Shown one piece after another: positions 18,952 to 53,208 of a DNA stretch of 64,000 nt (positions within the stretch are counted from its first letter, which is position 1; every line of letters starts with the position of its first letter). The stretch is from assembly GCA_964450735.1 (NCBI GenBank), contig CAYVDC010000005.1, forward strand, positions 22,628-86,627. Reading direction: 5' to 3'. Source of the DNA: an uncultured Candidatus Saccharibacteria bacterium. GTDB lineage: Bacteria; Patescibacteriota; Minisyncoccia; Phycocordibacterales; UBA9973. The translations under genes were made by a program, and so were the position numbers. The notes below the pieces were generated by a model. That model ran no database searches. It was not told where the DNA came from and worked only from the letters and a program-made list of their open reading frames with translations.

Positions 18952-20502
18952 ATGCTACTTATGAACAAAGCGTCACAAGACACAACTACTACCAGCGAAC
19001 AAGAAAAGGTCGGATTTCTGATCAAAAAGCTCCGCGAACAGCGCGGCATGACCCAGGCCGAGTTTGCCAAAGCGCTTGCTACTTCCCAATCCGCAGTCGC
19101 CCGCATGGAATCTGGCGGCCAAAATCTCACTGTGGATCAACTCTCAAAAATCGGCGAGGTTCTTGACCGAAAGATCATGTCTCTTTCAGATGACTCAGTA
19201 GACTTCCAGATCGAAGGCGGACGCAAGCTTTCAGGAACCATTGAAACCAACTTTTCAAAAAACGGCGCCGTTGCACTCATTCCTGCTGCCCTGCTTAACA
19301 AAGGCACAACCATTTTGAATGGTATTCCAAAGATCGAAGAAGTATTTCGGCAAATTGAACTCTTCAAATCTATAGGAGTAGATGTTCAGTGGACCAAAGA
19401 AAATACTTTGAAGATCACTCCTCCAAAGCAATACGACCTCAAGCATATGGACGCTGGCGTAGCCAAGAAAATCCGCGTATCGCTCTATCTCTTTGGCGCA
19501 CTCGGCAAACAGTTGAAGTCTTTTTCTCTTCCCCATTCCGGCGGATGCAAAATGGGCAAACGAACAATCAAGGCGCATGAAGCTGGCCTTCATGAATTGG
19601 GATTGAATATCAAGACAACTGACACTGCATATGAAGTCAGCCACACGAAACTTTCAGGAGGAGAAGTTACTCTCTATGAATCAAGCGACATGGCAACGAT
19701 CAATATTCTTCTCCTTGCTGCGCAAATTCCACAGGAAACAGTAATTCACTTCGCTCAGGCAAACTACATGGTGCAAGATGTATGCTTCTTCCTCCAGGAA
19801 CTTGGCGTATCTATAGATGGCGTAGGTTCGAGCACCCTTCGCGTTCGAGGAATAGAAAGCATTACTAAGCCGATCGAATATTGCAACAGCGAAGACCCAA
19901 TTGAATCTATGATGTGGCTTTCTGCTGCAATCGTCACCAAGTCAAAACTTATCATCACTCGCTGCCCTATCGATTTCTTGCGACGAGAGCTTCTTGTTCT
20001 TGAAGACATGGGATTGAAGTTCACTACATCAAAAAAATACTTCTCATTTAATAACAAAACCGTACTTGTTGATATTACGGTTTTGCCTTCAAAGCTCCAC
20101 GCTCCAGAAGACAAGATCACTGCTCAGCCATATCCAGGCATTAACACCGACAACCTGCCATTCTTCGTTCCTATTGTTACTCAGGCAGAAGGAACAACGC
20201 TCATTCACGACTGGATGTGGGAAAATCGCGCGATCTATTTCACTGAGCTCAATCGCCTCGGTGCGCAGGTTACTTTGGCAGATCCGCATCGTGCATTCAT
20301 TACCGGCCCAAGCAAATTAAAAGGCGCACAAGTTGTTTGTCCTCCGGCACTTCGTCCTGCAACAATTATCCTTATCGCCATGCTTGCGGCCGAAGGCACT
20401 TCAACGCTTCGCAACGTGTATTCGATCAAACGCGGCTATGCTGAGATCGCTGAGCGTTTGAACTCAATCGGCGCGAATATTAAAGTCTTGAAAGGAATGT
20501 AA
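18952..20502 (+). CDS. murA: UDP-GlcNAc 1-carboxyvinyltransferase MurA with an in-frame N-terminal XRE-family HTH domain
   Basis: Residues about 20-75 are a Cro/C1-type HTH (LREQRGMTQAEFAKALATSQSAVARMESG); MurA begins at MSLSDDSVDFQIEGGRKLSG; active-site Cys in PHSGGCKMGKR. Confidence 0.85.
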   Translation: MLLMNKASQDTTTTSEQEKVGFLIKKLREQRGMTQAEFAKALATSQSAVARMESGGQNLTVDQLSKIGEVLDRKIMSLSDDSVDFQIEGGRKLSGTIETNFSKNGAVALIPAALLNKGTTILNGIPKIEEVFRQIELFKSIGVDVQWTKENTLKITPPKQYDLKHMDAGVAKKIRVSLYLFGALGKQLKSFSLPHSGGCKMGKRTIKAHEAGLHELGLNIKTTDTAYEVSHTKLSGGEVTLYESSDMATINILLLAAQIPQETVIHFAQANYMVQDVCFFLQELGVSIDGVGSSTLRVRGIESITKPIEYCNSEDPIESMMWLSAAIVTKSKLIITRCPIDFLRRELLVLEDMGLKFTTSKKYFSFNNKTVLVDITVLPSKLHAPEDKITAQPYPGINTDNLPFFVPIVTQAEGTTLIHDWMWENRAIYFTELNRLGAQVTLADPHRAFITGPSKLKGAQVVCPPALRPATIILIAMLAAEGTSTLRNVYSIKRGYAEIAERLNSIGANIKVLKGM

Positions 20503-22365: not shown

Positions 22366-25143
22366 ATGGAAAACCCTCCAAACATTCCGGAAAAGTTCCT
22401 CAAGGCCTATGATGCTGCGGCTACTGAAAAAGATGTGTATCAGCGCTGGGAAGCCAGCGGCTTTTTTAATCCAGACAAATGCATAGAAGCTGGCGTCACT
22501 GCCCCCGATGCAAAGGCATTCACTATCATGATGCCTCCTCCGAACGTCACCGGCGTTCTTCACATGGGACATGCCATGATGCTCACCCTCGAAGACATTA
22601 TGATCCGATTCAAGCGAATGCAGGGCTACAAGACATTATGGCTTCCAGGAACTGACCACGCCGCAATTGCAACGCAATCAAAAGTAGAAAAAGAAATTCA
22701 AAAAAAAGAAGGCAAGTCTCGCCACGATCTCGGGCGAGAAGAATTGTTGAGCCGAGTGAATGCGTTTGCCCAAGACAGCCACGACACTATTGTCTCGCAG
22801 GTAAAAGTGATGGGCGCATCATGTGACTGGTCACGAGAGGCCTTTACCCTTGATGCTCCTCGCAATCGCGCGGTAAACACCATGTTCAAGAAAATGTACG
22901 ACGATGGATTGATCTATCGCGGACATCGCATCGTCAACTGGGATCCAAAAGGCCAAACAACTATCGCTGACGATGAAATCGTATACGAAGAGCGAAAGTC
23001 AAAGATGTACACATTTAAGTACTCAAAAGACTTCCCTATCTCGATCTCTACTACTCGACCTGAAACAAAGGTTGGTGACTCTGCGGTTGCAGTTCATCCC
23101 GAAGACCCTCGATACCAGGAATTTATCGGAAAAGAGTACGATGCAGTATTCTGCGGAGTTCCAATCCATATCAAAATCATTGCAGATGAATCGGTAGAAA
23201 AAGACTTTGGCACTGGCGCACTCGGCGTTACTCCTGCTCATTCGATGACAGACTGGGAAATCGCTGATCGTCACAACCTTCCACGCAATCCTGTCATCAA
23301 TGAATACGCAAAAATGACCGTTGGTGGAGAGAATATTAAAGGGAAAAAGACGACCGAAGCACGCGAAGTCATTGTTCAATGGTTGCGCGATGAGGGTTTG
23401 CTTGAAAAAGAAGAAGACGTCACTCAAAACATTGGAACTGCTGAACGAACCGGCGGCATTATTGAGCCGTTGCCGAAACTTCAGTGGTTTGTAGACGTAA
23501 ACAAGGAGTTCGAACTTCCTCACTCAAATCTCACCGGAATTCCAAGTGGATCAAAAACTACATTCAAAGAAATCATGCGCAAGACCGTCGAAAGCGGACA
23601 GATCAAAATTCTGCCTGAGTATTTCGACAAAACATATTTCCACTGGATCGACAATTTGCGCGACTGGTGCATCTCACGACAGATTTGGTACGGACACCGC
23701 GTGCCAGTGTGGTATGACGCAGAAAAGAAAGAACATCTTCCAAAAAAGATAACTCTTTTGCTTGCTCGGCACGGGGAAAGCGAAGCTAATGCCAACGACA
23801 TATTTAGCGGCGGCAATTTTGACAGCCCGCTCACTCAAAAAGGAATCGATCAAGCGCATGAACTCGGCAAGAACTGCAAGACAATGAAAATCGACGGCGT
23901 TCTTTCATCGGCAATGAGCCGCAGCAAAGACACTGCGAAGTTTGCTTGCGAGGAACTCGGTATCAATCCTACCTCGGTCATTGAAATTCCTGAACTGCAT
24001 GAAGTTAAAAGCGACATGGACGGAAAGCCGAAGACAAAAGACCACTTCCGATTGAGCCAATTGATTCGTGAAGGAAAGGGAGAAACGATTGAACAAATAA
24101 AAGACCGTGCGGATGCGGCGCTTGCGAAAATTTCTGCCCTCGACGAAGGCACGTATCTCGTTGTTGCTCATAATGCATTCAATGCCTGCCTCCAAGCCCG
24201 CATCATGGGGATGGACGGAGAAAAAATTATTCAGCACTGGGAACATGTTGGTATCCGAGATAATGGCTCGGTAATGGAAGTTACTCTCATTGTTAATCCT
24301 ACTGATCCAGAACTTAAACAAGATGAAGACACGCTCGACACTTGGTTTTCATCTGCTCTTTGGACATTCTCAACCCTCGGATGGCCTGACAAAACAAAAG
24401 ACTTGGAAATCTATCACCCAACCGATGTTCTTGAAACTGGATACGAGATCCTTTTCTTCTGGGTTGCCCGCATGATCCTCATGACTGGCTACGCACTCGG
24501 AGACATTCCATTCCACACCGTATACCTGCACGGTACTGTTCGAGACGGCCAAGGACGCAAAATGTCCAAATCACTCGGCAATGGAATCGATCCGCTCGAC
24601 ATCGCTGCAAAATACGGCGCTGACGCGGGACGTATGGCTCTTGTTGTTGGAACTGCAGCTGGAACTGACTCAAAAATTTCTGAAGACAAAATCAAAGGTT
24701 ACAAGAACTTCTGCAATAAGCTCTGGAACATTACACGATTCATTCTTTCCAACACAGAAAATGTCACTCTCGATGAATCCTTCGGCGCATGGAGCGAACA
24801 AGACACAAAACTGATCGCGGAATTCAATACCATCAAAGCAGAAGTCACCCGAGAATATTCTGAGTACAAATTCCATATCGTTTCTGAAAAATTGTATCAC
24901 TATGCATGGCACAGCCTCGCTGATGTGATACTTGAAGACAGTAAAAAAATATTTACCGAAGGCACCGATGCTGAGAAAGCTTCGCGAGCACAGTTCTTGC
25001 TTGCAACACTCTACGATCTCTTGAAGCTTCTCCATCCGCTCATGCCGTTTGTTACCGAAGAAATTTGGAGTTTGCTTCCTACACAGGGTCGACTCTTAAT
25101 GGTAACAAAGTGGCCTGCATTGGCCGAGCAGCATGAATCCTAA
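22366..25143 (+). CDS. valS: Valyl-tRNA synthetase carrying an inserted histidine-phosphatase domain
   Basis: HIGH motif PNVTGVLHMGHA, KMSKS motif, WYGHRVPVWYD and QDEDTLDTWFSSALW blocks; insert at residues about 458-648 has an RHGESEAN signature; no C-terminal coiled coil. Confidence 0.95.
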   Translation: MENPPNIPEKFLKAYDAAATEKDVYQRWEASGFFNPDKCIEAGVTAPDAKAFTIMMPPPNVTGVLHMGHAMMLTLEDIMIRFKRMQGYKTLWLPGTDHAAIATQSKVEKEIQKKEGKSRHDLGREELLSRVNAFAQDSHDTIVSQVKVMGASCDWSREAFTLDAPRNRAVNTMFKKMYDDGLIYRGHRIVNWDPKGQTTIADDEIVYEERKSKMYTFKYSKDFPISISTTRPETKVGDSAVAVHPEDPRYQEFIGKEYDAVFCGVPIHIKIIADESVEKDFGTGALGVTPAHSMTDWEIADRHNLPRNPVINEYAKMTVGGENIKGKKTTEAREVIVQWLRDEGLLEKEEDVTQNIGTAERTGGIIEPLPKLQWFVDVNKEFELPHSNLTGIPSGSKTTFKEIMRKTVESGQIKILPEYFDKTYFHWIDNLRDWCISRQIWYGHRVPVWYDAEKKEHLPKKITLLLARHGESEANANDIFSGGNFDSPLTQKGIDQAHELGKNCKTMKIDGVLSSAMSRSKDTAKFACEELGINPTSVIEIPELHEVKSDMDGKPKTKDHFRLSQLIREGKGETIEQIKDRADAALAKISALDEGTYLVVAHNAFNACLQARIMGMDGEKIIQHWEHVGIRDNGSVMEVTLIVNPTDPELKQDEDTLDTWFSSALWTFSTLGWPDKTKDLEIYHPTDVLETGYEILFFWVARMILMTGYALGDIPFHTVYLHGTVRDGQGRKMSKSLGNGIDPLDIAAKYGADAGRMALVVGTAAGTDSKISEDKIKGYKNFCNKLWNITRFILSNTENVTLDESFGAWSEQDTKLIAEFNTIKAEVTREYSEYKFHIVSEKLYHYAWHSLADVILEDSKKIFTEGTDAEKASRAQFLLATLYDLLKLLHPLMPFVTEEIWSLLPTQGRLLMVTKWPALAEQHES

Positions 25144-40651: not shown

Positions 40652-41953
40652 CTACCTAACCTCCCATTCCCTCTCCTGTCGCACCAAAAATTGAGAGTCT
40701 GATTCCAATGCAAGCAAGTGTTTGACTGCTCGTTCCAGTCGAACGCTCTGTGATCCCTTTATCAGTATCACGTCTCCGGGAGAAATAACTGTTTTCAAAA
40801 ACTCCCCTGCTTGATCTGCGGTATCAAAATGTTTTATCTTTGTAAGATTAAATCCAGCTTCTTTTGCTCCTTCATCGATATATTTTGCACGGATACCGAC
40901 AGTGACGAGGAAGTCTGCTGAACCTGGAACTTGTTTTCCGAGTTCTTCGTGAGCTTCTTGAGTAAATTTACCAAGCTCCATCATATCGCCGAACACAGCG
41001 ATCTTGCGGCCATGCGCTTCTAATTCTTTGAGAAGTTCAAGCGAGCTCTTTGCAGCAATTGGCGAAGAGTTGTAAGTGTCATCGATGAGCGTGCTGTCAT
41101 TTACGCCATTAATAAGTGAGAGTCGTCCTGGCGGTGTGTGGTAGTCATGAAGTGCGGCAACTGCTTTCTCGAGATTGTAACCAAGTCCGTACACAACAGC
41201 ACAGGCAGCAAGCGCAGCACTGATGTGGCTCTCGCCGATGATGTACGGCATTGAAACAATGTAATTGTATTCGGGCAATGCAAGCGTAAACTCGCGACCA
41301 ATTGGAGAACGATGGCCTACTCCGTCATCAACGTAACTGAATTTCAGCTGTGTCGCGCGAACTGAGAGCGCATCGCTGAAGCCATACGAAATTGTCTTTG
41401 CGCCAAATTTGCCTGAGAGCGCAGCCACAACAGGATCGTCTCCATTTACTACGAGCAATCCGTCTGCACGCAAAGCCTCAGCCAAGCTCGTCTTCTCGGC
41501 GATAACATGTTCTTTGGATTCAAAAAATTCGATGTGCACTGGAACATCAGGAAAACGTGTGAGCACTACGACATCTGGCTTGAGCCACTTGGCAATGTCT
41601 TTGATATCGTTCGGTTTGTCTGCCCCGATTTCAAGCACCAGCCACTGCGGATATTTGTGCGGAAGTACAATCAAGCCAAAACCGCTCAAAAGCGTTCGAG
41701 CCCAGAGGATTGGATTGGTCCAGCCATTCGGTAAGCCAAGGATTGAGAGCGGAACACCCATTTCGCTGTTATAGCTCTTCTCGCTGCGTCTAACATGCGT
41801 ATAGGGCGCTAGGGCTGTATAAACAGCGTCTTTGGTAGAGGTTTTACCAACGCTTCCTGTAATTGCGATAATTTTCGGTTTATATCGGCGAAGGACCATT
41901 TTGGCTTCCCATGTAAGGATATGTACGATGATGTTTTTGAATGTTGATTTCAT
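40652..41953 (-). CDS. murF: UDP-MurNAc-tripeptide--D-Ala-D-Ala ligase MurF
   Basis: ITGSVGKTSTKD P-loop; Mur ligase central and C-terminal domains; downstream of ftsI in the dcw block. Confidence 0.85.
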   Translation of the reverse strand: MKSTFKNIIVHILTWEAKMVLRRYKPKIIAITGSVGKTSTKDAVYTALAPYTHVRRSEKSYNSEMGVPLSILGLPNGWTNPILWARTLLSGFGLIVLPHKYPQWLVLEIGADKPNDIKDIAKWLKPDVVVLTRFPDVPVHIEFFESKEHVIAEKTSLAEALRADGLLVVNGDDPVVAALSGKFGAKTISYGFSDALSVRATQLKFSYVDDGVGHRSPIGREFTLALPEYNYIVSMPYIIGESHISAALAACAVVYGLGYNLEKAVAALHDYHTPPGRLSLINGVNDSTLIDDTYNSSPIAAKSSLELLKELEAHGRKIAVFGDMMELGKFTQEAHEELGKQVPGSADFLVTVGIRAKYIDEGAKEAGFNLTKIKHFDTADQAGEFLKTVISPGDVILIKGSQSVRLERAVKHLLALESDSQFLVRQEREWEVR

Positions 41954-41986
41954 ATATTTTTCACTTTTTCTTCAGGCTAATCTGAT

Positions 41987-43702
41987 TTATCTATCTGGAG
42001 CTACATCATAGTACGTAAGGAGGAATTTGGCGAGATTCATGAACGGTATGGCCATGGTTTGAGATGAGTAGTCTACCCCTTTTGGATTTATGCCGTAGAG
42101 TAAGACAAGGAAGCGAGGATTGTAGGCTGGATAGTACCCGAACATTGAGTGAAGATATTGATCAGCGTAGTATCCTTTGCCATCTTCTCGAGCCATCTGC
42201 GCAGTTCCTGTTTTTGCGGCAACTGCGTAATGTTCCATTTTAAGCGTTCCACCGAGAAGATTGGTATCCACTGTTTGTACTAGCATGCGAGTAACTGTTG
42301 CTGCAGTCTCGGGTTTGATTACTTGCACTGGATCTGGTCGCGGAACGGTGTGAATGAATCCGTCAGGATAACTTATGGACTTCACTACTCGAGGAGAAAC
42401 AATTGCTCCCTCGTTTGCAAGTGCCGAGAATGCTCTCACTGCAGCAACTGGAGTAAGCGCTATACCCTGTCCGAATGATGCAGTTGCGTATTCAACTTCT
42501 CGCGTACTCTTGAGGTTTGTCATGATGTCATTAACTTCTCCTGGCATATCTACGCCAGTTTTTTCCATCAATCCGAATTTTGTAAAGTAATCTTTAAATT
42601 TGTCTTTGCCAAGCTGCTGCATGATGAATGTCGCGCCCATGTTGAGAGATTTATCAAAAATAGTCTGCATCGTTGTTGTATGCCGAGCAACTTTGTCGAA
42701 GTTACAAATCGTTTTAGTATTGAGCTTCATGCAGCCCGTATCATTGTAGGTAGTGTTTTGGGTAATTACGCCAGCATCAAGTCCAGCCGCCATGGTAAGG
42801 GCTTTCATAACGGATCCAAGCTCGTACACATCTTCAACATTGGGGTTCTGGAACACGCCAATATTTTTGACGCTGCCATAGTTTGCAGGATCAAAGTCGG
42901 GCGTACCGGCCATTGCAATAATGTCACCAGTTTTTGGATCGATAATAATGCCTCCAGCGCTATCGGTATGCCACTTTGCTGTAACATCGCCGAGAGTAGT
43001 TTCAAGCATATGCTGAGCTTCTGGTTCAATTGTCGCAATCAAGTCTCCTTCTGCATGCGGATCTCGAAAGAGCGTCTTGTGAAGATTGGTAAATAGTTCT
43101 GCGAAAAAGTTTACGTACAGATCACCCTTGCTTCGAGACAGGACGTCGTTGTATTCACGTTCAAGTCCATAACGACCGATGAGATCGTCACCTTTGAAAC
43201 CAACGAAGCCAAGCGTCTGTGATGCCATATGTCCTCCTGGATAAAAACGTTCTTTTCCATCTTCAAATCTCACGCCCTTGATCTTGAGATCCATGATTTT
43301 TGTTTTGAGCGACTCTGAAACACGATCAGCAAGCACTTCATACTGATCTCCTGGTTTTGTAAAAGAAACATCGTACGCTTTCCTGTCGATAGGAATGATT
43401 TCATTCAATGCAGCGTATGTGCTTTCGCGGTTTTCTGGCTTGATATCAATTGGTGAAATGACCAACTTGTAACGAGCATTTAGAGTTGCAGCAGGAACGA
43501 GTGTGCCGTTAGCTTGTGTAAAATAAATTGTGCCGCGGTCGTAGAGACCATTTACTTGGCTTGTGTACTCGCCGATTGCGGCGCTCGCATAATCATCATG
43601 ATGCACGATCTGCACCAAAAAAAGCTTGGTGATGATAAAAAAGCCAAGAACAATAAAAGCTGCTGCGACTATTTTGAGACGTAATGGAAAACTAGAATTC
43701 AT
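41987..43702 (-). CDS. ftsI: Penicillin-binding protein (FtsI/PBP3-like transpeptidase)
   Basis: SVMK (SxxK), SFG/SxN-type and KTGTA motifs; N-terminal TM anchor. Confidence 0.85.
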   Translation of the reverse strand: MNSSFPLRLKIVAAAFIVLGFFIITKLFLVQIVHHDDYASAAIGEYTSQVNGLYDRGTIYFTQANGTLVPAATLNARYKLVISPIDIKPENRESTYAALNEIIPIDRKAYDVSFTKPGDQYEVLADRVSESLKTKIMDLKIKGVRFEDGKERFYPGGHMASQTLGFVGFKGDDLIGRYGLEREYNDVLSRSKGDLYVNFFAELFTNLHKTLFRDPHAEGDLIATIEPEAQHMLETTLGDVTAKWHTDSAGGIIIDPKTGDIIAMAGTPDFDPANYGSVKNIGVFQNPNVEDVYELGSVMKALTMAAGLDAGVITQNTTYNDTGCMKLNTKTICNFDKVARHTTTMQTIFDKSLNMGATFIMQQLGKDKFKDYFTKFGLMEKTGVDMPGEVNDIMTNLKSTREVEYATASFGQGIALTPVAAVRAFSALANEGAIVSPRVVKSISYPDGFIHTVPRPDPVQVIKPETAATVTRMLVQTVDTNLLGGTLKMEHYAVAAKTGTAQMAREDGKGYYADQYLHSMFGYYPAYNPRFLVLLYGINPKGVDYSSQTMAIPFMNLAKFLLTYYDVAPDR

Positions 43703-44045
43703 GTGGAGCAGCGACCGAAACCTGTGAGACAGTTGGAGCAGTCCTGCTTACGAATGATATCTCATGAGCCTCATGTAAGCCAAGTGTTGCACCACGATCA
43801 AGGTTGATCGACTGTGCCTGAGCAAGGTATTCAACCTGGAGAGTTCCTATGCGCGCTGAGAGAGCTTGAGCTTCCTTCTGATAGGCTGAGCGTTCAATAA
43901 CAAAGTGGATAGTAGAACCAAGTGCATATGCATAGAGAATGATGCAAACGCCGATCAAGCCAAGTGCGATCAAAGCTGCGCGCTTATAGAGCGTTGCTTC
44001 TTCGATATCTCGAGTATGTGATTGTATGAATGCTGCTGTAGTCAT
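43692..44045 (-). CDS. ftsL: Cell division protein FtsL-like (small bitopic membrane protein)
   Basis: Single TM helix plus coiled-coil-like tail; positioned between rsmH and ftsI. Confidence 0.5.
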   Translation of the reverse strand: MTTAAFIQSHTRDIEEATLYKRAALIALGLIGVCIILYAYALGSTIHFVIERSAYQKEAQALSARIGTLQVEYLAQAQSINLDRGATLGLHEAHEISFVSRTAPTVSQVSVAAPHEF

Positions 44046-44062
44046 ATATTCAACTTTATTAC

Positions 44063-44956
44063 TTATGCTTTTTCGACGATTCTTAATTTTGCACTGCGTG
44101 ATCGAGGGTTTGATCTAGATTCGGTGTCTGTAGGAACAATGGGCTTCTTCGTCACTATGTTCACGATTCCTTCTGTCTGAGCTTCTCTGAAGGCATTTTT
44201 TACGATGCGATCTTCGAGAGAATGAAATGTAATAATGGCCAATCGTCCTTGTGGTGCAAGCATCTCAAGCGCTCCTGCGATTCCCTGTTTGAGAGCACCA
44301 AGCTCGTCGTTCACTGCAATACGGAATGCTTGGAATGTCTTGGTTGCAGGATTCGTTTTACCTTTCCTGAATCGAGCAGGAATTGAAGCTTCGACAACTC
44401 GCACGAGATCAAACGTTGTCTTGATCGGAGCAATCTCTCGAGCTTCAACGATGCCTTTGGCAATCCTTCGAGCGAATGTATCTTCGCCGTATGCATAGAT
44501 GATATCTGCAATCGCTGACTCGCTTGAAGTATTCACCAAGTCATACGCAGTGAGTGTCACATCAGGGACGATCTCATCTTCCATTGTCATCAGAAGCGGC
44601 TCGTCTTTCTGGAATGTAAATCCACGTCCAGAATCATCGAGCTGCACAGAGCTGATGCCAATGTCCATAAGAATCGCGTCTACCTCGGTGAAACCATGCG
44701 ACTTGAGCTGTGAAGCAATATTTCTAAAGCTGTCATTGATCAAGATCGGTTCCGCGCCAGCTGATGCAAGCAATGCACCTGCACGCTTGATAGCATCGCC
44801 TTCACGATCGAATCCAATGATCGTCAGATTCTCCTGCGATTGAAATGCCGCAAGAGCGTGACCACCGGAACCAAGCGTGCCATCCACATAGACAGCTCCA
44901 GGCTTAAGATTGAGGCCATTAATAGTTTCTTCTAAAAGGACAGGAATGTGCGCCAT
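44063..44956 (-). CDS. rsmH: 16S rRNA (cytosine1402-N4)-methyltransferase RsmH/MraW
   Basis: HIPVLLEE...VDGTLGSGGHA SAM-binding motif. Confidence 0.9.
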   Translation of the reverse strand: MAHIPVLLEETINGLNLKPGAVYVDGTLGSGGHALAAFQSQENLTIIGFDREGDAIKRAGALLASAGAEPILINDSFRNIASQLKSHGFTEVDAILMDIGISSVQLDDSGRGFTFQKDEPLLMTMEDEIVPDVTLTAYDLVNTSSESAIADIIYAYGEDTFARRIAKGIVEAREIAPIKTTFDLVRVVEASIPARFRKGKTNPATKTFQAFRIAVNDELGALKQGIAGALEMLAPQGRLAIITFHSLEDRIVKNAFREAQTEGIVNIVTKKPIVPTDTESRSNPRSRSAKLRIVEKA

Positions 44957-45086
44957 AAATGTTATTTTGTAACACCGCACACATAAGGAATTTTGAATCC
45001 GAGGAAACGCAGCCCGCCTTTGTGCTGCATATTGCGGGCGAACCCGCAGGATTAAAAATTACTTATGTGTAAGGTGTGCATGATTA

Positions 45087-45521
45087 CTAAAGTACTCCAA
45101 CACTGCCCAATTTTTCTGCCAACTGGTCAGCTTCCTTTTCGACCACTGCCTTGTAATCAGCCCAGATCTTCTCGTTCCAAATTTCAACGCGATTCTGAAC
45201 ACCAATAACAGCAACTGTCTTTTTGAGATTCGCACGATCTTTCAAAAAGTCAGGCACCAAGATGCGTCCGCTGCCATCAACGTCAACTTCAACCGCGCCT
45301 CCAAACATAAAACGGTTAAAACTACGATTGTCAGCCTGGAGCATAGAATTCTCGCCCAAGCGGCTAGCGATCTTTTCCCATTCTTTGACAGTGAACATGA
45401 AAATCGACTTATCCAAGCCCGGAGCAAGCACTACTTTCTTTCCCAACTCGCTTCGAAATTTCGCAGGTAACGACATGCGGTTCTTTTCATCCAACGTATG
45501 TATGTATTCTCCGATGAGCAT
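45087..45521 (-). CDS. mraZ: Transcriptional regulator MraZ
   Basis: MLIGEYIHTLDEKNRMSLPAKFR, the first of two DxxxR-type MraZ repeats. Confidence 0.85.
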   Translation of the reverse strand: MLIGEYIHTLDEKNRMSLPAKFRSELGKKVVLAPGLDKSIFMFTVKEWEKIASRLGENSMLQADNRSFNRFMFGGAVEVDVDGSGRILVPDFLKDRANLKKTVAVIGVQNRVEIWNEKIWADYKAVVEKEADQLAEKLGSVGVL

Positions 45522-45601
45522 TTTTGTTTGGACTATTGATCGCACGCCGACCAAGCTACTTCTCTAATAAATCTCTCAACTTTTCTCACAAAAACTAGTT
45601 C

Positions 45602-45667
45602 CCCACTTCCTCCCACTTAAGTCTAAGTTTACTCCACTTTATCCCACAATGCAAAGCAATAACCCAC
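45602..45667 (-). promoter_or_regulatory. mraZ promoter (-35 TTGCAT 45654-45649, -10 TAAACT 45631-45626) overlapped by a phased array of five GTGGG/GTGGA MraZ-box repeats
   Basis: CCCAC/TCCAC on the plus strand at 45602, 45612, 45633, 45643, 45663, i.e. 10- and 20-bp phasing spanning the hexamers. Confidence 0.6.
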
Positions 45668-45696
45668 AAAAAACTGTGGATAAATAAGGGTTTTTT

Positions 45697-45712
45697 GTGA
45701 ACGGACGTTCAC
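45697..45712. promoter_or_regulatory. LexA-like palindrome GTGAACGGACGTTCAC (GAAC-N4-GTTC) upstream of the mraZ promoter
   Basis: Same half-site architecture as the lexA autoregulatory box; flanks differ (T/A rather than C/G). Confidence 0.35.
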
Positions 45713-45774
45713 TTACCTAAAAATAAAAAAACGCAGGTTGTTAGCCCGCGTTATCAAAAAATTTTGTGTAGTAA

Positions 45775-47043
45775 CTATTTCTCAAATACTGTAATCTGCT
45801 TTCTAAAAGTAAAATTTTCTTTCCAAAGCTTAAGAACATCCTTAAAGGTAAGTGCTGCTTCCCTTTCATATTCTTCTTGTACTGAGAAGTTGCGATGAGT
45901 TTCTGGTAGACGCCGAGACATTCTATCGCGCAAATATTTGAAGATCGCAATAGTATCGAATTCAGTAAGCTCATAATCAAGCATAAATTCTTCGTGCATC
46001 TCATCAAAAACAGGCTTTAGAGAAGAAGGGTCATTCAATATTCCTAAAATAGAATTAACTATCTTATCTAGACCTTGAGTATCTTCTTCAGAATCGAGCG
46101 AACATACATTCATGAAAACATTGCCGCATATCTTCTTGTTATATTCGGTACCATAAATCAGATGCTGCTTTTCCCTCAAGTCATTGAATATCCACCTATC
46201 AAACATGCTGCCAGTATAGAATAAATGCTCGTGATAATTCCCTGTTGTGAAAATTTGTACTGACGAATCGATTAGCGTAGGATTAAAATCACTCATTTTT
46301 TTAGTAACAACATGCTCTCGACGAGCATGTTGTTCAGAAAATATAAAGCAATTTCTTTTTATAACCTGACCATTTCGTTCCCTCATAACAATTTTCCCAA
46401 GCGCTTGCTCGAGTTCTAACGCAGTTATGTTTCCATACACTACGAGAAATGCATTTTCATATACGAACATTTGATCAAAGTGCTTCTGCAGATCGGCAAG
46501 TGATATTGCTTTAATGCTTTCCCTAATACCTAATACGCTGGAACGAACCTGGTGAGGCGTATCATTCAATAGTGCCTGAGTAATGGAATCCTCATGTTGG
46601 TTGAGCGTAAGAGATGAATTTGATTCAGCATGTTCGCGTAGAATAATTTTTGTTTGTTTTTCCCAACCTTTTTCAATTTTGAGGTTAAAAGTGCCATCAA
46701 TCAAGAATTGTAATGCGGGTACAATATTTAACGGTAATACCTTGCATCCAAATCTCATATCAAGCATACCAGTATCCGGAGAGTGTAATTCGCCGCGTAG
46801 TCTGCGCATATGATTTCTTTGAGCACGAATGGTTTGAGCAAGAGGATTATTTTCCAGGATCATGTGCTCCAGTTTGTGCACTAAGCCTTCTTTTCCAGGA
46901 ACGTCATCAATGGCTCCGGTTTCAACAACTAATTGTATTTCAACGAAATTCACTTCTGTTTTGGGATAAAGTGCAACACGAAGGCCGTTTTGCAAAGTAA
47001 AGCAATCCGTTTTCTTAAATGGATCAAATAAGGTTGTATTCAT
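45775..47043 (-). CDS. M16-family (pitrilysin/insulinase-like) zinc peptidase
   Basis: Inverted zincin motif HKLEH (HxxEH) near the N-terminus; about 420 aa. Confidence 0.7.
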   Translation of the reverse strand: MNTTLFDPFKKTDCFTLQNGLRVALYPKTEVNFVEIQLVVETGAIDDVPGKEGLVHKLEHMILENNPLAQTIRAQRNHMRRLRGELHSPDTGMLDMRFGCKVLPLNIVPALQFLIDGTFNLKIEKGWEKQTKIILREHAESNSSLTLNQHEDSITQALLNDTPHQVRSSVLGIRESIKAISLADLQKHFDQMFVYENAFLVVYGNITALELEQALGKIVMRERNGQVIKRNCFIFSEQHARREHVVTKKMSDFNPTLIDSSVQIFTTGNYHEHLFYTGSMFDRWIFNDLREKQHLIYGTEYNKKICGNVFMNVCSLDSEEDTQGLDKIVNSILGILNDPSSLKPVFDEMHEEFMLDYELTEFDTIAIFKYLRDRMSRRLPETHRNFSVQEEYEREAALTFKDVLKLWKENFTFRKQITVFEK

Positions 47044-47192
47044 ATAACTAATGTTTATTAAGTTTTAAATGTAGTGACTCCAAAATAGCACAAAATTCCA
47101 ATTTGTCAAAATGTAGCATATTGGCATCTAGTAAAATAAAAAGCCTCTCGCACACATATGCAGAGGCTTTTTTATCCCAATTTCAGTAGGAT

Positions 47193-47942
47193 TTATTTTT
47201 TAGCAAATCCTTCGAGAGCTTTCAAGATTTCCATCGGAATCATGTACACAACTGTGTTTGATTGATCAGATGACATGTCGTTGATGGACTGAAGCGTTCG
47301 CAAGTGGAGAGCACCTGGCGAAGATGCGAGCATTGCAGCGGCCTTGGCCATGTTTTCGGATGAAGCGAGCTCTCCTTCTGAGGTAATGATCACGGCTCGC
47401 TTTTCTCGTTCTGCTTCTGCCTGTTTTCCTATTGTCCGTTCAAGTTCCGGAGGAAGACTTACGTCTTTGAGTTCGACGTTCTGAACCTTCAATCCCCATG
47501 CGTCTGTCTCGCTATCAACGATTTCGCGGATACGATCAGCGATCTTGTCTCGGCTCGCAAGCAGTTCATCGAGCGTCACTTCGCCGACGATGTTTCGCAT
47601 CGTTGTCTGTGCGTACTGGGAAATAGCGTGGCGAAAATCCTCAACTTCAATAATAGCTTTTGCTGCATCGCTTACCTTGTAGTAAATAACAGCATTAACA
47701 CGAACAGAAACATTGTCTCGAGTGATTGCGTTCTGATCTGGGACATCGACTGCTTTGGTTCGCACGTCTACCTTTTCATACGACTGCACGATTGGCAGTA
47801 CGAGGCGCCATCCTGGCTCCATCATGCCGGTAAATTTTCCGAAGGTAAACCGAACCCCACGTTCATACTGGTTTATTTGGCGGATACTTACTAGAAGGAT
47901 AGCGAGTACTCCGATTACGATTGCGATAAATAATACTTCCAT
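47193..47942 (-). CDS. SPFH/band-7 (stomatin/prohibitin-like) membrane protein
   Basis: N-terminal TM helix; SPFH core YERGVRFTFGKF...VDVRTK...RDNVSVRVNAV. Confidence 0.85.
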   Translation of the reverse strand: MEVLFIAIVIGVLAILLVSIRQINQYERGVRFTFGKFTGMMEPGWRLVLPIVQSYEKVDVRTKAVDVPDQNAITRDNVSVRVNAVIYYKVSDAAKAIIEVEDFRHAISQYAQTTMRNIVGEVTLDELLASRDKIADRIREIVDSETDAWGLKVQNVELKDVSLPPELERTIGKQAEAEREKRAVIITSEGELASSENMAKAAAMLASSPGALHLRTLQSINDMSSDQSNTVVYMIPMEILKALEGFAKK

Positions 47943-47966
47943 AAATACTCTAAGTTTATTTATTAA

Positions 47967-49874
47967 TTATGAATAACGCTCAAACTGCGCTGTTAATTTT
48001 TCTACTTCGCTCTTTGGTCCATATACCAATACGCCGAGGTATTCAATATCGCTAAAGTCTTTTGATTTCGTCATTTCGATCACTTTTTTGTCGTTAGTAG
48101 TCTCAATCATTTCGCGAGTGAATTCATCTACCTCAAGCTTTGCTTCTTTTGCAGAATGAGCAAGGGACTGGAGGTCGCTCGAAGAAGAAGCTGATTTGAT
48201 GATGATTGCCTGTTTTGTATTGAGCTTAATCGAAACATTATCCTTGGAAGTGATGGTGTCTTGAGTGAACAATTCCTTGCCTACTCGCGCACCAAAGGCC
48301 GCATTGAGATGCGCAACGGTATTCATTTCCTGCCACTTTTCAAGATTGATGCCAGTATTCAAAACCGCAACAGCAACCATAGTTTCTTTTTTCTTTGGAG
48401 CACCTTCGCCTTTCGGACGCATAAGAGGAAACATCACTGTTTCGCGAATTGGCTTTCCTGCAAGGACCGCAAACATACGATCACCCACAGGAGCGGAGCC
48501 GAACGCTGGCGGCATACCATGTTCAAGCATTTCTACGAATTCCCAGTCAGGCATCATTGCTTCATCATCTCCGCGTTCAATAAGTTTCTGCTGTTCTTCG
48601 AAACGTGCGCGCTGATCGAGCGGATCATTGAGCTCAGAGAAGCTGTTAGAAAATTCGCTTCCAGCCATAATAAGCTGACAGCGTTCTACTGTCTCAGGAT
48701 TTTCTGGACGTGCCTTTGCGAGCGGAGAAACGAGCTTTGGATGGTTGGTAAGCCACACAGGACCAGCAATTCCCTTTCGGCAATACTTCCAGAGCGAGTC
48801 GATCATTCGTTCACGAGTTGCGCCTTCGTATTCAACACCGAGTTCTTCGAGCTTGTCTGCAAGTTCTTTTTCGGAAGCCGTAAGCACGTCTACGCCGGTC
48901 TTTTCCAAAACGTATGGCACATATTCGATAACATCCCATTTTGGAGATAGATCGACATCGTAGCCTTTGACATTGAATTGCAATGTTCCAAAAGTCTTTT
49001 GGACGACGTCTTTGACCATTCGTTCAACGAGCTCCATGCCGCCTTTGTAATCCATGTATGCTGCATAGCACTCCATGTTGGTGAATTCCTGAAGATGTTC
49101 AGGAGATGAGCCTTCATTGCGGTATACGCGGCCAATCTCAAATACTTTCGGAAATCCTGCTGCAAGAGCGCGTTTCTGCCAGAGTTCTCCAACTGAGATA
49201 CGCATGTATACATCCATGCTGAAATCATTGTGATATGTTTTGAATGGTCGAGCTTCCGCACCTCCGGTAGTTGTCTCAATGGTAGGTGTTTCAATTTCCA
49301 GGAAACCTTCATTCAGCATGAATTCACGTGCTGACCTCCAAAAGAGCGATCGCTTTTCAAGAAGCGCGCGGAGATCCGCGTCCATGAGGATATCAAGATA
49401 TCGTTTGCGGTAGCGTTCATCTGGGTCGGTAATACCATGCCATTTTTCTGGAAGTGGAGCGAGTGTTTTGGTTCCCATTTTCCAATTTGAAACAAGGATA
49501 GATGGCTCCCCTCGTTCTGTAGTAAAGAGCGTTCCGGTGACCTGGATAAAATCCCCAAGGTCTACGGTTTCAGTGAATAATGAAAAGATTGATTCTTCAA
49601 TATCGTCTTTTTTGAAAACAGCCTGAAATTTTGCCGTGCCGTCATTGAGCACTGCAAAGAGGATCGCTCCTTGTCCGCGGAGGGCCATAACACGGCCAGC
49701 AAGCGTGATTGGGGCTTTGATATTATCAAACTGCGCTCGAACGTCAGCCAAGCTTTTGTCGCGGTCAATATGCGCTGGGTATGATTCCATGCCAGCGGCA
49801 GTAAGTTTCTCAAGTTTTTCCAACCGGTTCGCGCGTATTTCTTCGAGTGATGCCATATGGGACGAGTATAGCAA
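47967..49874 (-). CDS. lysS: Lysyl-tRNA synthetase (class II) with a C-terminal extension of about 147 aa
   Basis: OB anticodon-binding N-domain, class II motifs (FLEIETP; GGAEARPF; ELCNAFTE-like region), core ends ...MFPLMRPK at about residue 488, then an extra domain. Confidence 0.9.
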   Translation of the reverse strand: MLYSSHMASLEEIRANRLEKLEKLTAAGMESYPAHIDRDKSLADVRAQFDNIKAPITLAGRVMALRGQGAILFAVLNDGTAKFQAVFKKDDIEESIFSLFTETVDLGDFIQVTGTLFTTERGEPSILVSNWKMGTKTLAPLPEKWHGITDPDERYRKRYLDILMDADLRALLEKRSLFWRSAREFMLNEGFLEIETPTIETTTGGAEARPFKTYHNDFSMDVYMRISVGELWQKRALAAGFPKVFEIGRVYRNEGSSPEHLQEFTNMECYAAYMDYKGGMELVERMVKDVVQKTFGTLQFNVKGYDVDLSPKWDVIEYVPYVLEKTGVDVLTASEKELADKLEELGVEYEGATRERMIDSLWKYCRKGIAGPVWLTNHPKLVSPLAKARPENPETVERCQLIMAGSEFSNSFSELNDPLDQRARFEEQQKLIERGDDEAMMPDWEFVEMLEHGMPPAFGSAPVGDRMFAVLAGKPIRETVMFPLMRPKGEGAPKKKETMVAVAVLNTGINLEKWQEMNTVAHLNAAFGARVGKELFTQDTITSKDNVSIKLNTKQAIIIKSASSSSDLQSLAHSAKEAKLEVDEFTREMIETTNDKKVIEMTKSKDFSDIEYLGVLVYGPKSEVEKLTAQFERYS

Positions 49875-50443: not shown

Positions 50444-51451
50444 CTAGTACAGTCGCTGAATTTGTTTGCGAAGTTTGAACATGATTTGATAGATCTTATA
50501 CAAGAACGGAAATACCACCAAGTCATAGCTTCCGATCATTTCTACGGCTTCCCCGCCATAGCCTTTTTTGAAATCAGAAAATCCTGCCCAAGGGTTTGTA
50601 GGATCCGTGCTGTCTGGCGGGAGTATACCCCACAGGTCGAGCGATCTTGCGCCGTTTTCTTTGCCGAACACAATAACATTCCACATGAGAGCATTCATTG
50701 CTTTAAGATTGCGGTGTTCCATTGATGATCCTGCGTATGTGTAATAGAGAGTTCCTTTGTAGAGAAAAAGTTCGCAAGCACAGAGGATCTTGTCTTGGTA
50801 TTTTGCGGTAAGTATGTGAGCAATACCTATTTTTGAAAAGATGTCCCAGATTGTCTTGTGGTACTTTTTGGTATGACCACCAAAACGCTGTCGCTTTGTT
50901 GTTTCAGAATATATAGCATAAAAATCTTCAAAGCCTTGGTCCGTATCATTGTTTAAAACAACAACACCTTTTCGTTCTGCGAGGCCAATATTGTACCGTG
51001 TGTTTGCCTCGAGCTCTTTTTTGAGTGTTTCGATTGGCTTTGAAAGATCTATGATTCGTGTCCACTGATAAAAAAGCGGCGTGCCAGACTTTTGCAACAG
51101 TGGTGATGGAGTTTCAAAAGCATCATCATGACCGCCAGTAACAATCTGATCAGGCTCGAACATCACAAAAATAATCTTGTACTTTTTGCAATAAATTTGA
51201 AGGTAGCTCAAAAATTCTTCGCTTGGTATTTTTGATCGTGGAATATACCCGATGCTATAGTTTATGAATGGAACAGCATGCAAGGTCATCTGATACGTTT
51301 CAATCAGAATTTCATTTTCGCACACACCAAAACGCACAACGCGAAGGCCAGTCGTTTCTCGGATGGTACCCCAAGCATAATCCTGCAGTGGATGCGGAGC
51401 GCCTTGGTTAAAATCTGATGGTTCAATTGTAGGAAGTTCGCGGACTGACAT
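50444..51451 (-). CDS. FemAB/MurM-family peptidoglycan interpeptide-bridge aminoacyltransferase-like protein
   Basis: About 335 aa; GNAT-like duplicated fold pattern of FemAB; adjacent to PBP2; family call by overall pattern, moderate. Confidence 0.55.
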   Translation of the reverse strand: MSVRELPTIEPSDFNQGAPHPLQDYAWGTIRETTGLRVVRFGVCENEILIETYQMTLHAVPFINYSIGYIPRSKIPSEEFLSYLQIYCKKYKIIFVMFEPDQIVTGGHDDAFETPSPLLQKSGTPLFYQWTRIIDLSKPIETLKKELEANTRYNIGLAERKGVVVLNNDTDQGFEDFYAIYSETTKRQRFGGHTKKYHKTIWDIFSKIGIAHILTAKYQDKILCACELFLYKGTLYYTYAGSSMEHRNLKAMNALMWNVIVFGKENGARSLDLWGILPPDSTDPTNPWAGFSDFKKGYGGEAVEMIGSYDLVVFPFLYKIYQIMFKLRKQIQRLY

Positions 51452-53208
51452 TATTGAGTGTACTCAGGAGTATTTTCAGCCATCCATGAAAGCTGGTCGA
51501 GCGCCACAGCAGCAGCACCTAGAGAAGTAACTTCAGTTCCCTTTTCCATCATAACGACAATGACATACTTTGGATTGTCATATGGAAAGAACCCAGTCAT
51601 CCAAGCATTCAAAAATTCATTTCGTACGCCAACCTGAGCCGTACCTGTCTTTGCTGCAACTTTGAATGGAAGTACATTCAATGCCTTGGCGGATCCTAAA
51701 TTGTCGGTAACAACCAATCGCATACCCTCATGCACTACATTGAAGAATTCCTTGCTGAGATTAAGCTGGGTCTTTTTTGCCTCAAATGTTTTGTCGTCTT
51801 TGGTGATATGCGGAGATACAAGTAGCCCATTGCTTGCAATACCGGCTACAGCGCGAGCCATTTCAATCGGAGTAACTTGTACTCCGTACTGTCCGATTGC
51901 AGTGTTATAGGTGTCACCAATACGCCAAGCATCACCGTTGAAATTCTTGGCTTTCCAGGCAGGGCTTGGAATAACGCCGCCCTTTTCATTTGGAAGATCG
52001 ATGCCTGTTGGAACTCCGATACCGAACATAGTCAGATATTTTCCAATATTATCTATGCCGATACCCCGCTGCGATTGATATCCGCCGCCAACGTTATAAA
52101 AGAAAATGTTCGATGAATATGCGAGCGCATGGCGAACATCAATGACGCCGTTATCAGCACGATAATCGCGGAAGATCGTAGGATGAGCGGGGTCATAAGG
52201 ATTTGGCACGCTGATGGTACCGTGCGCAGCAATCTGGGTGTGCTCAGTGATCACTCCCTCAGTAAGCCCTGCCATTGCCATATAGGGTTTAACGATGGAA
52301 CCAGGAGAATAGAGACCTGCCACCGCGCGATCAAGAAATGGCTTTGCAGAATCTGTCAGATACTTTTGAATAAGCCCGCGGTCGTCGCCGGACGACATAA
52401 CCTGGGAAGAATATTCAGGAATGCTTGTAAGAGCGAGGAGCTCTCCGTTTTCAATATTCATAATGATTCCTGCTCCTCCTTTGTATCCTGATTGCTGCAT
52501 GATTTTGTGAATAGCACTGGCAAAATGCGACTGCAGTCGAGCATCAATCGAAAGTGTTATGTTGTCGCCTGGAATTGGTTTATAGATTTGGTTTGAGAGC
52601 GTCGTCTTGCCGTGCACATCGCGCTCAATCAACCGCGTGCCATTTTCTCCCTGCAGTTTGTCATTGTATTGTTTTTCAACTCCGTCTTTGCCCAAAAACT
52701 CTGTTTGCCAGAAGTTACCTGATGAATCTTTTGCTGGATAGCTAACATATCCCAGCAAATGACTGAAGCCTGGCTGATCAATATACGCACGTTTTGAAAA
52801 CGCTTCGTCAGTTGTTTGTGTTTCGTTCCAAGCAAGCAGCTGCTCATTACGGTCATAGATAACGCCGCGCTCAGCAAAGAGCGGCTCACGAGCAAGCTGG
52901 TTCTGCTGGCTTTGATTGTAGTATGCTGTTCCTTTGATCCCCTGCATGTAAAGCAGCCGGCCGACAAAAATGATAAAAACAATCAGGAAGAAAATCTGAG
53001 TACCGACAATAGTTTGCTTGCTGATTGCCTTCTCTATGCGGCCTTCAAATTGCTGTTTGTCGAACTGTGGCAGGTTTTTGGAATCCAAAAAGATCTCGTC
53101 TGGTTCAACGAATGCGTGCGAATATTTTCTGTTTTTTCGAAAAAAGTTAAGAAAGGCCATATCGGGTAAATCGCTTGCCGAGCTCAATAGCTGCAAAGAG
53201 CGCCGCAC
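51451..53208 (-). CDS. mrdA: Penicillin-binding protein 2 (elongation-type transpeptidase)
   Basis: SIVKP (SxxK), SSN and KTGTA motifs; N-terminal TM anchor. Confidence 0.85.
   Translation of the reverse strand: MRRSLQLLSSASDLPDMAFLNFFRKNRKYSHAFVEPDEIFLDSKNLPQFDKQQFEGRIEKAISKQTIVGTQIFFLIVFIIFVGRLLYMQGIKGTAYYNQSQQNQLAREPLFAERGVIYDRNEQLLAWNETQTTDEAFSKRAYIDQPGFSHLLGYVSYPAKDSSGNFWQTEFLGKDGVEKQYNDKLQGENGTRLIERDVHGKTTLSNQIYKPIPGDNITLSIDARLQSHFASAIHKIMQQSGYKGGAGIIMNIENGELLALTSIPEYSSQVMSSGDDRGLIQKYLTDSAKPFLDRAVAGLYSPGSIVKPYMAMAGLTEGVITEHTQIAAHGTISVPNPYDPAHPTIFRDYRADNGVIDVRHALAYSSNIFFYNVGGGYQSQRGIGIDNIGKYLTMFGIGVPTGIDLPNEKGGVIPSPAWKAKNFNGDAWRIGDTYNTAIGQYGVQVTPIEMARAVAGIASNGLLVSPHITKDDKTFEAKKTQLNLSKEFFNVVHEGMRLVVTDNLGSAKALNVLPFKVAAKTGTAQVGVRNEFLNAWMTGFFPYDNPKYVIVVMMEKGTEVTSLGAAAVALDQLSWMAENTPEYTQ

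Follow-up and report, generated by a model that had tools for sequence, protein, structure and literature searches.

Why would a lysyl-tRNA synthetase (LysRS) carry a second, hydrolase-like domain behind its catalytic core, and what would that domain do there? The question is raised by lysS in a 64,000-nucleotide stretch of DNA from an uncultured Candidatus Saccharibacteria bacterium (assembly GCA_964450735.1, contig CAYVDC010000005.1, positions 22,628 to 86,627 of the forward strand), here called the window, in which the class II synthetase continues in frame into a C-terminal tail. The tail is assigned by its profile match to DUF2000, an orphan Pfam family, and is predicted to have the fold of Pth2-type peptidyl-tRNA hydrolases. 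The resulting protein, LysRS-DUF2000, is a variant of a known pattern, that of a synthetase with an appended hydrolase-fold module. Whether the tail acts as a hydrolase on tRNA-Lys can be answered only tentatively, and the answer is weighed below against its rivals.

Gene and Domain Organisation

A single open reading frame (ORF) occupies window positions 47967..49874 on the minus strand and encodes 635 amino acids (aa) when counted from an upstream TTG at 49874; residue numbers throughout refer to this 635-aa ORF. The start is probably the ATG at 49856, which would give a protein of 629 aa, because relatives begin with MASLEEIR and a 93%-identical homologue (P0031) also has 629 aa. The stop codon, read directly, is TAA at 47969..47967. 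The synthetase core ends in FPLMRPK, of which the lysine is residue 488, and the reading frame runs on for 147 codons (48410..47970). The preliminary description of this locus had given the ORF coordinates and residue strings correctly. Its placing of the core end near residue 488 agrees both with the NCBIfam lysine--tRNA ligase model PRK00484 and with an unfused relative that stops there, and the in-frame extension of about 147 residues that it called was confirmed by reading the codons to the TAA.

PRK00484 matches residues 12-488 from one end of the model to the other, with 490.1 bits (cut-off 468), while TIGR00499 falls just below its cut-off (424.9 vs. 427.6). Residues R252-N253-E254-G255, E407, E414, N416 and R466 never vary among 100 fused homologues, one of which is the window protein; we take the first four to represent class II motif 2 and R466 motif 3. 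A tblastn search found no second LysRS in the 64-kb window. Judged from its sequence, the window LysRS is apparently a complete, functional class II enzyme with a housekeeping role. Its parts, all on the minus strand, are the following.

47967..49856, minus strand: lysS-DUF2000 gene, probable extent (ORF and start codons of relatives)
49479..49709, minus strand: oligonucleotide/oligosaccharide-binding (OB) fold anticodon-binding domain, residues 56-132 (PF01336, E 1.5e-13)
48420..49424, minus strand: class II catalytic core, residues 151-485 (PF00152, E 5.7e-61)
48381..48410, minus strand: lysine-rich linker GEGAPKKKET, 10 residues, 489-498 (low conservation, lower model confidence than its flanks)
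47970..48380, minus strand: predicted DUF2000/Pth2-fold domain, 137 residues, 499-635 (PF09391, E 4.4e-21; Foldseek; profile match to 2GAX)

The linker between core and tail, residues 489-498, is flexible.

Family and Fold of the Extension

The preliminary description had likened the extension to a PTH2/DUF2000-type fold, and the family DUF2000 and the Pth2 fold are both borne out. The tail scores 75.6 bits with the DUF2000 model PF09391, whose gathering cut-off is 25, and the match spans positions 4-129 of the 133 in the profile. The tail has no Pfam or NCBIfam match to AlaX/tRNA_SAD, B3_4, YbaK/tRNA_edit, CP1 or DTD. A phmmer search of the tail against PDB sequences returned nothing, and a profile was needed to reach 2GAX, the structure of Agrobacterium Atu0240; one built from 37 DUF2000 sequences, fused and standalone, finds it with E 2.4e-16.

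The AlphaFold2 model of the tail has a predicted local distance difference test score (pLDDT) of 78.5, and the same region scores 84-93 in the full-length model (mean 88). The predicted order of elements is beta-alpha-beta-beta-beta-alpha-beta-alpha-alpha-beta-alpha. When this model is compared with the PDB by Foldseek, the top match is 2gax_A (E 7.1e-8, target-normalised template modelling (TM) score 0.76), followed only by seven Pth2 entries, namely 1q7s (human Bit1), 1wn2, 3erj/1rzw, 2zv3, 1xty and 1rlk, with E from 4e-4 to 6e-2; all remaining matches have E>1. Aligned by hhalign with a profile of five Pth2 sequences from the PDB, the 37-sequence DUF2000 profile matches over its full length (E 6.5e-5, probability 64%). 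Four motif correspondences with Pth2 that the preliminary description had drawn by eye are reproduced in this alignment: VAVAVLN with KMVIVVR, NTVAHLNAA with AAQVAHAA, AIIIKSAS with KIIVKV, and EYLGVLVYGP with TCLGIGPAP. The modelled tail thus has a predicted Pth2 fold, while by sequence family and by conserved active-site residues it is assigned to DUF2000 and not to Pth2.

Two known proteins, or groups of proteins, are therefore closest to the tail. Atu0240 belongs to the same Pfam family and is its best structural and profile match, but is a standalone protein of 135 aa, about 15% identical to the tail, with Phe in place of His522 and lacking Gly619. The Pth2/PTRH2/Bit1 proteins (PF01981; 1xty, 1wn2, 1q7s, 2zv3, 3erj, 1rlk) share the fold and the order of elements, with a target-normalised Foldseek TM score of about 0.7, as well as a His in helix 1 and a Thr near the C-terminus. 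They differ in that their invariant Lys16/Lys18, Gln22, Asp86, Gly88, Thr90 and GP motif are unmatched in the tail, which is about 20 residues longer, has an extra beta-hairpin, is acidic rather than basic, and is fused to a synthetase rather than free.

Conserved Residues

Conservation within the tail is concentrated in three places.

48309..48323, minus strand: helix alpha-1 signature N518-T-V-A-H522 (Asn AAT at 48323..48321, His CAT at 48311..48309)
48090..48122, minus strand: motif F585-T-R-E-M-I-E-T-T-N-D595 after strand 4, nearly invariant among fused proteins
47991..47993, minus strand: Thr628, invariant in the sampled DUF2000 sequences and aligned with the invariant Thr114 of Pth2

Asn518, His522 and Thr628 are invariant in the 37 fused and standalone DUF2000 sequences, and Gly619 is kept in more than 90%. 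The fused branch has further invariant residues (Trp514, Asp545, Asn552, Phe585 and Met589) and others conserved in at least 90% of its members (Lys560, the TRE triplet 586-588, Thr592/593, Asp595, Lys597 and Lys621); Lys597, two residues past the end of the F585..D595 motif, is near-invariant too. In the hhalign alignment His522 pairs with the invariant His25 of Pth2 and Thr628 with Thr114, and these are the only two residues in common. Topologically, the F585..D595 motif corresponds to the Pth2 D86-A-G-x-T90 loop, whose Asp has no match. In the same register the conserved tail residues map to helix 1, the loop after strand 4 and the last strand-helix, the elements that bear the Pth2-invariant residues and line the Pth2 active-site crevice.

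Distribution of the Fusion

The architecture is not peculiar to this genome. Of the 120 LysRS clusters (90% identity) that score best, about 100 share OB domain, core and DUF2000 in proteins of about 630 aa, are 55-93% identical to the window protein and come from NCBI, ENA, JGI and Logan assemblies. The source names, where present, are 'lysine--tRNA ligase' or 'lysyl-tRNA synthetase class 2', and the organisms given are Paceibacterota, Nomurabacteria, Minisyncoccia and Parcubacteria. When the window's LysRS and these 120 clusters are aligned, 102 of the 121 have the in-frame junction of core and tail, and its sequence, FPLMRPK followed by the linker and KETM, is conserved across the fused homologues.

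A hidden Markov model (HMM) of the tail alone, run exhaustively against 1.84 billion representatives, matches only 268 proteins, and architectures were judged among the best 150 of these. LysRS fusions account for at least 37 of the 150, and complete standalone proteins of 135-150 aa for about 35. Among the 45 of at least 200 aa, 36 have the domain behind a class II LysRS core and two more are C-terminal LysRS fragments, recognised by Pfam or by sequence similarity; the others comprise a desaturase fusion (P0246), a chimeric-looking protein (P0030) and five of 203-263 aa in which no partner was identified. P0030, a HATPase/BRCT protein with a DUF2000 fragment on a 1.6-kb contig, looks like a chimeric call and was disregarded.

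A scan of GTDB species representatives gave 122 genomes, and in the 80 retained DUF2000 stands in frame with the LysRS core save for a handful of truncated cases; these loci were found with an alignment (A3) and the set is hence biased to the fused branch. Hosts include Doudnabacteria, Peregrinibacteria/Peribacteria, Moranbacteria, Dojkabacteria and DPANN archaea. A complete Woesearchaeota chromosome (CP060218.1, 2516-4465 of locus L056) encodes a class II LysRS-DUF2000, and is taken as genuinely archaeal because the flank encodes Rpb4/RpoF and an archaeal-type ProRS; the fused gene has therefore moved between bacteria of the candidate phyla radiation (CPR) and DPANN archaea. The fusion is ancient or highly mobile and is widespread in both groups. 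It is also common in public databases under plain synthetase names, so that the earlier claim of an undescribed arrangement holds for the literature searched, in which no description was found, and not for the databases.

A defence or phage role was considered and rejected: PADLOC and PHROGs gave no match to defence or phage families, and there were no relatives in IMG/VR contigs.

Selective Constraint and Recombination

Identity to homologues is 61% in the tail and 62% in the core, with 43% in the linker; over all pairs it is 56% in the tail and 65% in the core. These figures point to purifying selection on the tail as strong as that on the catalytic core.

Judged by its neighbouring genes, which are near-identical to those of the window (MraZ 98%, GreA 91%), L004 is the closest genome. 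When window 48381..49784 is compared with L004:2450-4456, the two LysRS proteins are 87% identical over residues 1-30 and 83-90% over residues 481-600, a segment that takes in the end of the core, the linker and DUF2000. Over residues 31-480 identity varies between 23 and 80% in 30-aa windows, with an average of about 53%, and it is 56% over the whole core. From this mosaic it follows that the LysRS core was replaced in situ by recombination while the tail was kept.

Proposed Function

It is possible, though in our estimate somewhat short of probable, that the DUF2000 tail hydrolyses N-blocked, peptidyl or mis-acylated tRNA-Lys at the 3' end, beside the LysRS that recharges it. The LysRS body would hold tRNA-Lys, and the tethered domain would reach its 3' (A76) end. 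There the domain would cleave esters that are of no use to LysRS or ought not to leave it, for example N-blocked or peptidyl-Lys-tRNA-Lys produced by ribosome drop-off, or else tRNA-Lys that is mis-acylated. Once cleared, the tRNA could be recharged on the spot by the same protein. The chemistry would be unlike that of canonical Pth2, using the family's own polar set (Asn518, His522, Thr593 and Thr628), to which the fused branch would add Arg587, Asp595 and Lys597.

Several lines of evidence lead to this proposal. The PF09391 score, the restriction of fold matches to 2GAX and Pth2, and the full-length hhalign alignment to Pth2 argue for a hydrolase, as do the two shared residues (His522/His25 and Thr628/Thr114), the constraint on the tail and its many invariant polar residues. 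The company that the domain keeps points the same way: LysRS is its near-exclusive partner, its LysRS is further joined to AlaXM, B3/4 and HD/HDIG add-ons, one standalone member neighbours a YbaK-type gene, and the tail was kept in L004 when the core was exchanged.

These additional modules are of three types. An AlaXM-type alanyl-tRNA editing domain follows DUF2000 in an archaeal metagenome-assembled genome (L050:2546-5167, E 1.4e-43 to the AlaXM model) and in P0171. A PheRS-beta B3/4 editing domain lies between core and DUF2000 in P0206, a protein of 906 aa found on two independent contigs (including L095:4001-6721). An extra HD/HDIG phosphohydrolase, the commonest additional partner, follows LysRS-DUF2000 in L036, L041, L028, P0152 and P0153; the first three, from Doudnabacteria and others, have 833-840 aa, and the domain is weakly similar to the HD part of NadD-HD proteins. 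Two of these three types, AlaXM and B3/4, are bona fide aminoacyl-tRNA deacylases acting on the A76 ester. The YbaK-type neighbour concerns a standalone DUF2000 gene (L087:1317-2218) that lies 12 nucleotides (nt) upstream of a YbaK/ProX-type tRNA_edit gene and is preceded by RidA.

Lysine itself is a reasonable target. Class II LysRS is a homodimer. To judge by the title of Heurgue-Hamard et al. (1996), tRNA-Lys is the species that becomes limiting in E. coli on failure of Pth, growth being held back by its sequestration as peptidyl-tRNA. High drop-off is seen for Met-Lys-tRNA, among other dipeptidyl-tRNAs (PMC10192219), and Pth2 also works as a homodimer (PMC11994314).

Precedents for such an arrangement are found in AlaRS/AlaX, the ThrRS N2 domain, the PheRS-beta B3/4 domain and ProRS INS/YbaK, in each of which the tether lets a hydrolase-fold module get to the 3' end of the tRNA; modules of the AlaXM and B3/4 types are even found joined to LysRS-DUF2000 itself. 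DUF2000 differs in being homologous to no known editing domain. In LysX, the mycobacterial MprF-LysRS protein, a class II LysRS is likewise joined to a domain for which Lys-tRNA-Lys is a substrate, in this case an N-terminal lipid lysyl-transferase. We know of no LysRS with a post-transfer editing domain, class II LysRS being known for pre-transfer editing only. A wider version of the proposal, which we regard as doubtful, would make DUF2000 an unrecognised family of tRNA-ester hydrolases, an offshoot of the Pth2 fold with an Asn/His site of its own. The tail would then equip the class II LysRS of CPR bacteria and DPANN archaea for proofreading or recycling, and no domain for post-transfer editing, or for rescue of peptidyl/N-acyl-Lys-tRNA-Lys, would have been known before in any LysRS. 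Such a module would be exchanged between bacteria and archaea and, in some lineages, combined with AlaX, B3/4 or HD modules in one protein.

Were the hydrolase proposal true, it would supply the first function for an orphan Pfam family with a structure solved since 2006, and a new solution to quality control or tRNA recycling in organisms with minimal translation machinery, and it would document an exchange of translation components between CPR bacteria and DPANN archaea. The hydrolase-fold domain is permanently tethered to LysRS across hundreds of reduced-genome symbionts.

A number of observations weigh against it. The preliminary description had proposed a tRNA-directed hydrolase or deacylase module fused to LysRS; this is supported for the fold and the fusion, and for the hydrolase or deacylase role it is only a possibility. 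The PTH2 model PF01981, which it had named for a check, gives no match at E<=1 with either the whole protein or the tail. Lys18, Asp86 and Thr90 (S. solfataricus numbering), which are reportedly the catalytic residues of Pth2, are not matched in the tail: hhalign places Gln515, Thr592 and Lys596 opposite them, in an alignment that is of low confidence at the Asp86 loop. The tail is acidic, with an isoelectric point (pI) of 5.4 as against 8.8 for the basic Pth2, and Atu0240, the sole solved DUF2000 member, has Phe at the His522 position. The co-fusion of AlaXM and B3/4, which are true editing domains, is just as compatible with an editing activity that does not lie in DUF2000, and DPANN archaea are expected to have a Pth2 of their own. 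Standalone members give little guidance: seven neighbourhoods show no consistent theme and are mostly unrelated to translation (PnuC, rhodanese, CYTH, M14 peptidases, RidA), L087 being the only translation-linked context among them. P0246 (568 aa), a fatty-acid desaturase domain with a C-terminal DUF2000, is the only non-LysRS architecture with an identified partner. In the literature searched there was no mention of DUF2000 or of its fusion to LysRS, and no published function for the family.

Loss of the tail counts in the same direction. In a neighbour-joining tree of LysRS cores, 19 unfused LysRS are nested within the fused clade. Checking the lysS stop in relatives, as had been suggested, revealed in L001 (3746-5700; GCA_964535545.1) a core 88% identical to that of the window which ends directly after the core, in LMRPKE and a stop, with no remnant of the tail, at a locus that shares the FemAB-GreA-lysS synteny with the window (45087..49874). 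Nested unfused enzymes and this clean loss indicate that the domain is dispensable. The tail is accordingly a selected yet dispensable modular accessory.

Alternative Explanations

Dispensability and the missing Pth2 residues fit another explanation, which is fairly unlikely in our judgement and yet fares best among the alternatives. The tail might be a degenerate Pth2 fold, no longer catalytic, whose ligand is either the acceptor end of tRNA-Lys or a partner protein such as EF-Tu, a FemXAB-type transferase or a further synthetase. It would in this way raise tRNA affinity or channel Lys-tRNA-Lys, as many appended domains of aminoacyl-tRNA synthetases do. The absence of equivalents of Pth2 Lys18 and Asp86, the silence of the PTH2 HMM and the repeated losses, which mark the tail as accessory, are all in its favour, as is a FemAB-family gene two genes upstream in conserved synteny. 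CPR LysRS also gain plain RNA-binding add-ons, an example being the Microgenomates LysRS with a C-terminal PheRS B2-like OB domain (PMC5370408), a precedent for a tRNA-Lys-binding addition to class II LysRS that differs from the tail in having an OB fold. An acidic tail (pI 5.4) is nevertheless unlike general tRNA-binding add-ons, and its many, closely set invariant polar positions (Asn518, His522, Asp545, Asn552, Arg587, Glu588, Thr592/593, Asp595, Lys597 and Thr628) resemble a pocket or active site more than a docking surface. Even if non-catalytic, the DUF2000 tail would be a well-defined, lineage-marking addition to LysRS.

The same acidity would suit a role unrelated to tRNA, which we consider improbable. 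The domain might bind or hydrolyse a small molecule or nucleotide, diadenosine tetraphosphate (Ap4A) or another by-product of LysRS for instance, or it might sense a metabolite, and so regulate or complement the non-canonical chemistry of LysRS. The mixed non-translation neighbours of standalone members (the nicotinamide mononucleotide transporter PnuC, CYTH, rhodanese, RidA), the desaturase fusion and the frequency of HD/HDIG as extra partner are consistent with such a role. It sits poorly with LysRS as the fusion partner of nearly all matches of at least 200 aa among the best 150 of 268, with the nature of the other co-fused modules, AlaXM and B3/4, as aminoacyl-tRNA deacylases, and with peptidyl-tRNA hydrolases as the sole structural relatives.

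An artefact, in which lysS and an independent DUF2000 gene would have been run together by a missed stop or a frameshift, has a negligible probability and is rejected, because the same in-frame fusion recurs across genomes (102 of 121 LysRS and almost all of the 80 species genomes, which stem from many different studies and assemblers) with a conserved junction, and nothing real speaks for it beyond a few domain-only database fragments whose first residue is the Met of PLMRPK and a 128-aa ORF on a 3.5-kb contig (L069). The missed stop or frameshift that the preliminary description had named as a possible refutation is excluded by this recurrence in about 100 clusters and the species genomes.

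Genomic Neighbourhood

In the window lysS lies within a cell-wall and division cluster (50444..53208 and 40652..45554, both minus strand) with the order PBP2-type transpeptidase, FemAB-family (aminoacyl-tRNA-dependent) transferase, GreA, lysS, MraZ, MraW, a second penicillin-binding protein and a Mur ligase. The order FemAB-GreA-lysS is kept in relatives, the FemAB-family gene being two genes upstream of lysS. Neither Pth1 nor Pth2 was found by tblastn within the window or in 90 locus flanks, the scope of this search being these regions rather than whole genomes.

Between lysS and mraZ the window has two further genes. A SPFH/Band-7 gene (47193..47942, minus strand) starts 24 nt past the lysS stop, and a gene for a weakly M16-like peptidase follows (45775..47043, minus strand). 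The pair looks like an insertion, because mraZ directly follows lysS in L004. In L001 the same interval holds different genes, of 113 and 234 aa, with no Pfam match.

Elsewhere in the window, an ORF at 18952..20502 (plus strand) encodes a protein of the 5-enolpyruvylshikimate-3-phosphate (EPSP) synthase fold (MurA/AroA family) with an N-terminal HTH_3 DNA-binding domain, an unusual pairing. A valyl-tRNA synthetase of 925 aa (22366..25143, plus strand; PRK05729, 888 bits) carries an insert of about 180 aa between the halves of its class I core, which matches His_Phos_1 (PF00300, E 9e-28, aa 464-640) and is histidine-phosphatase/phosphoglycerate-mutase-like. With lysS, this makes two synthetases in the genome that carry an unusual added domain of hydrolase type.

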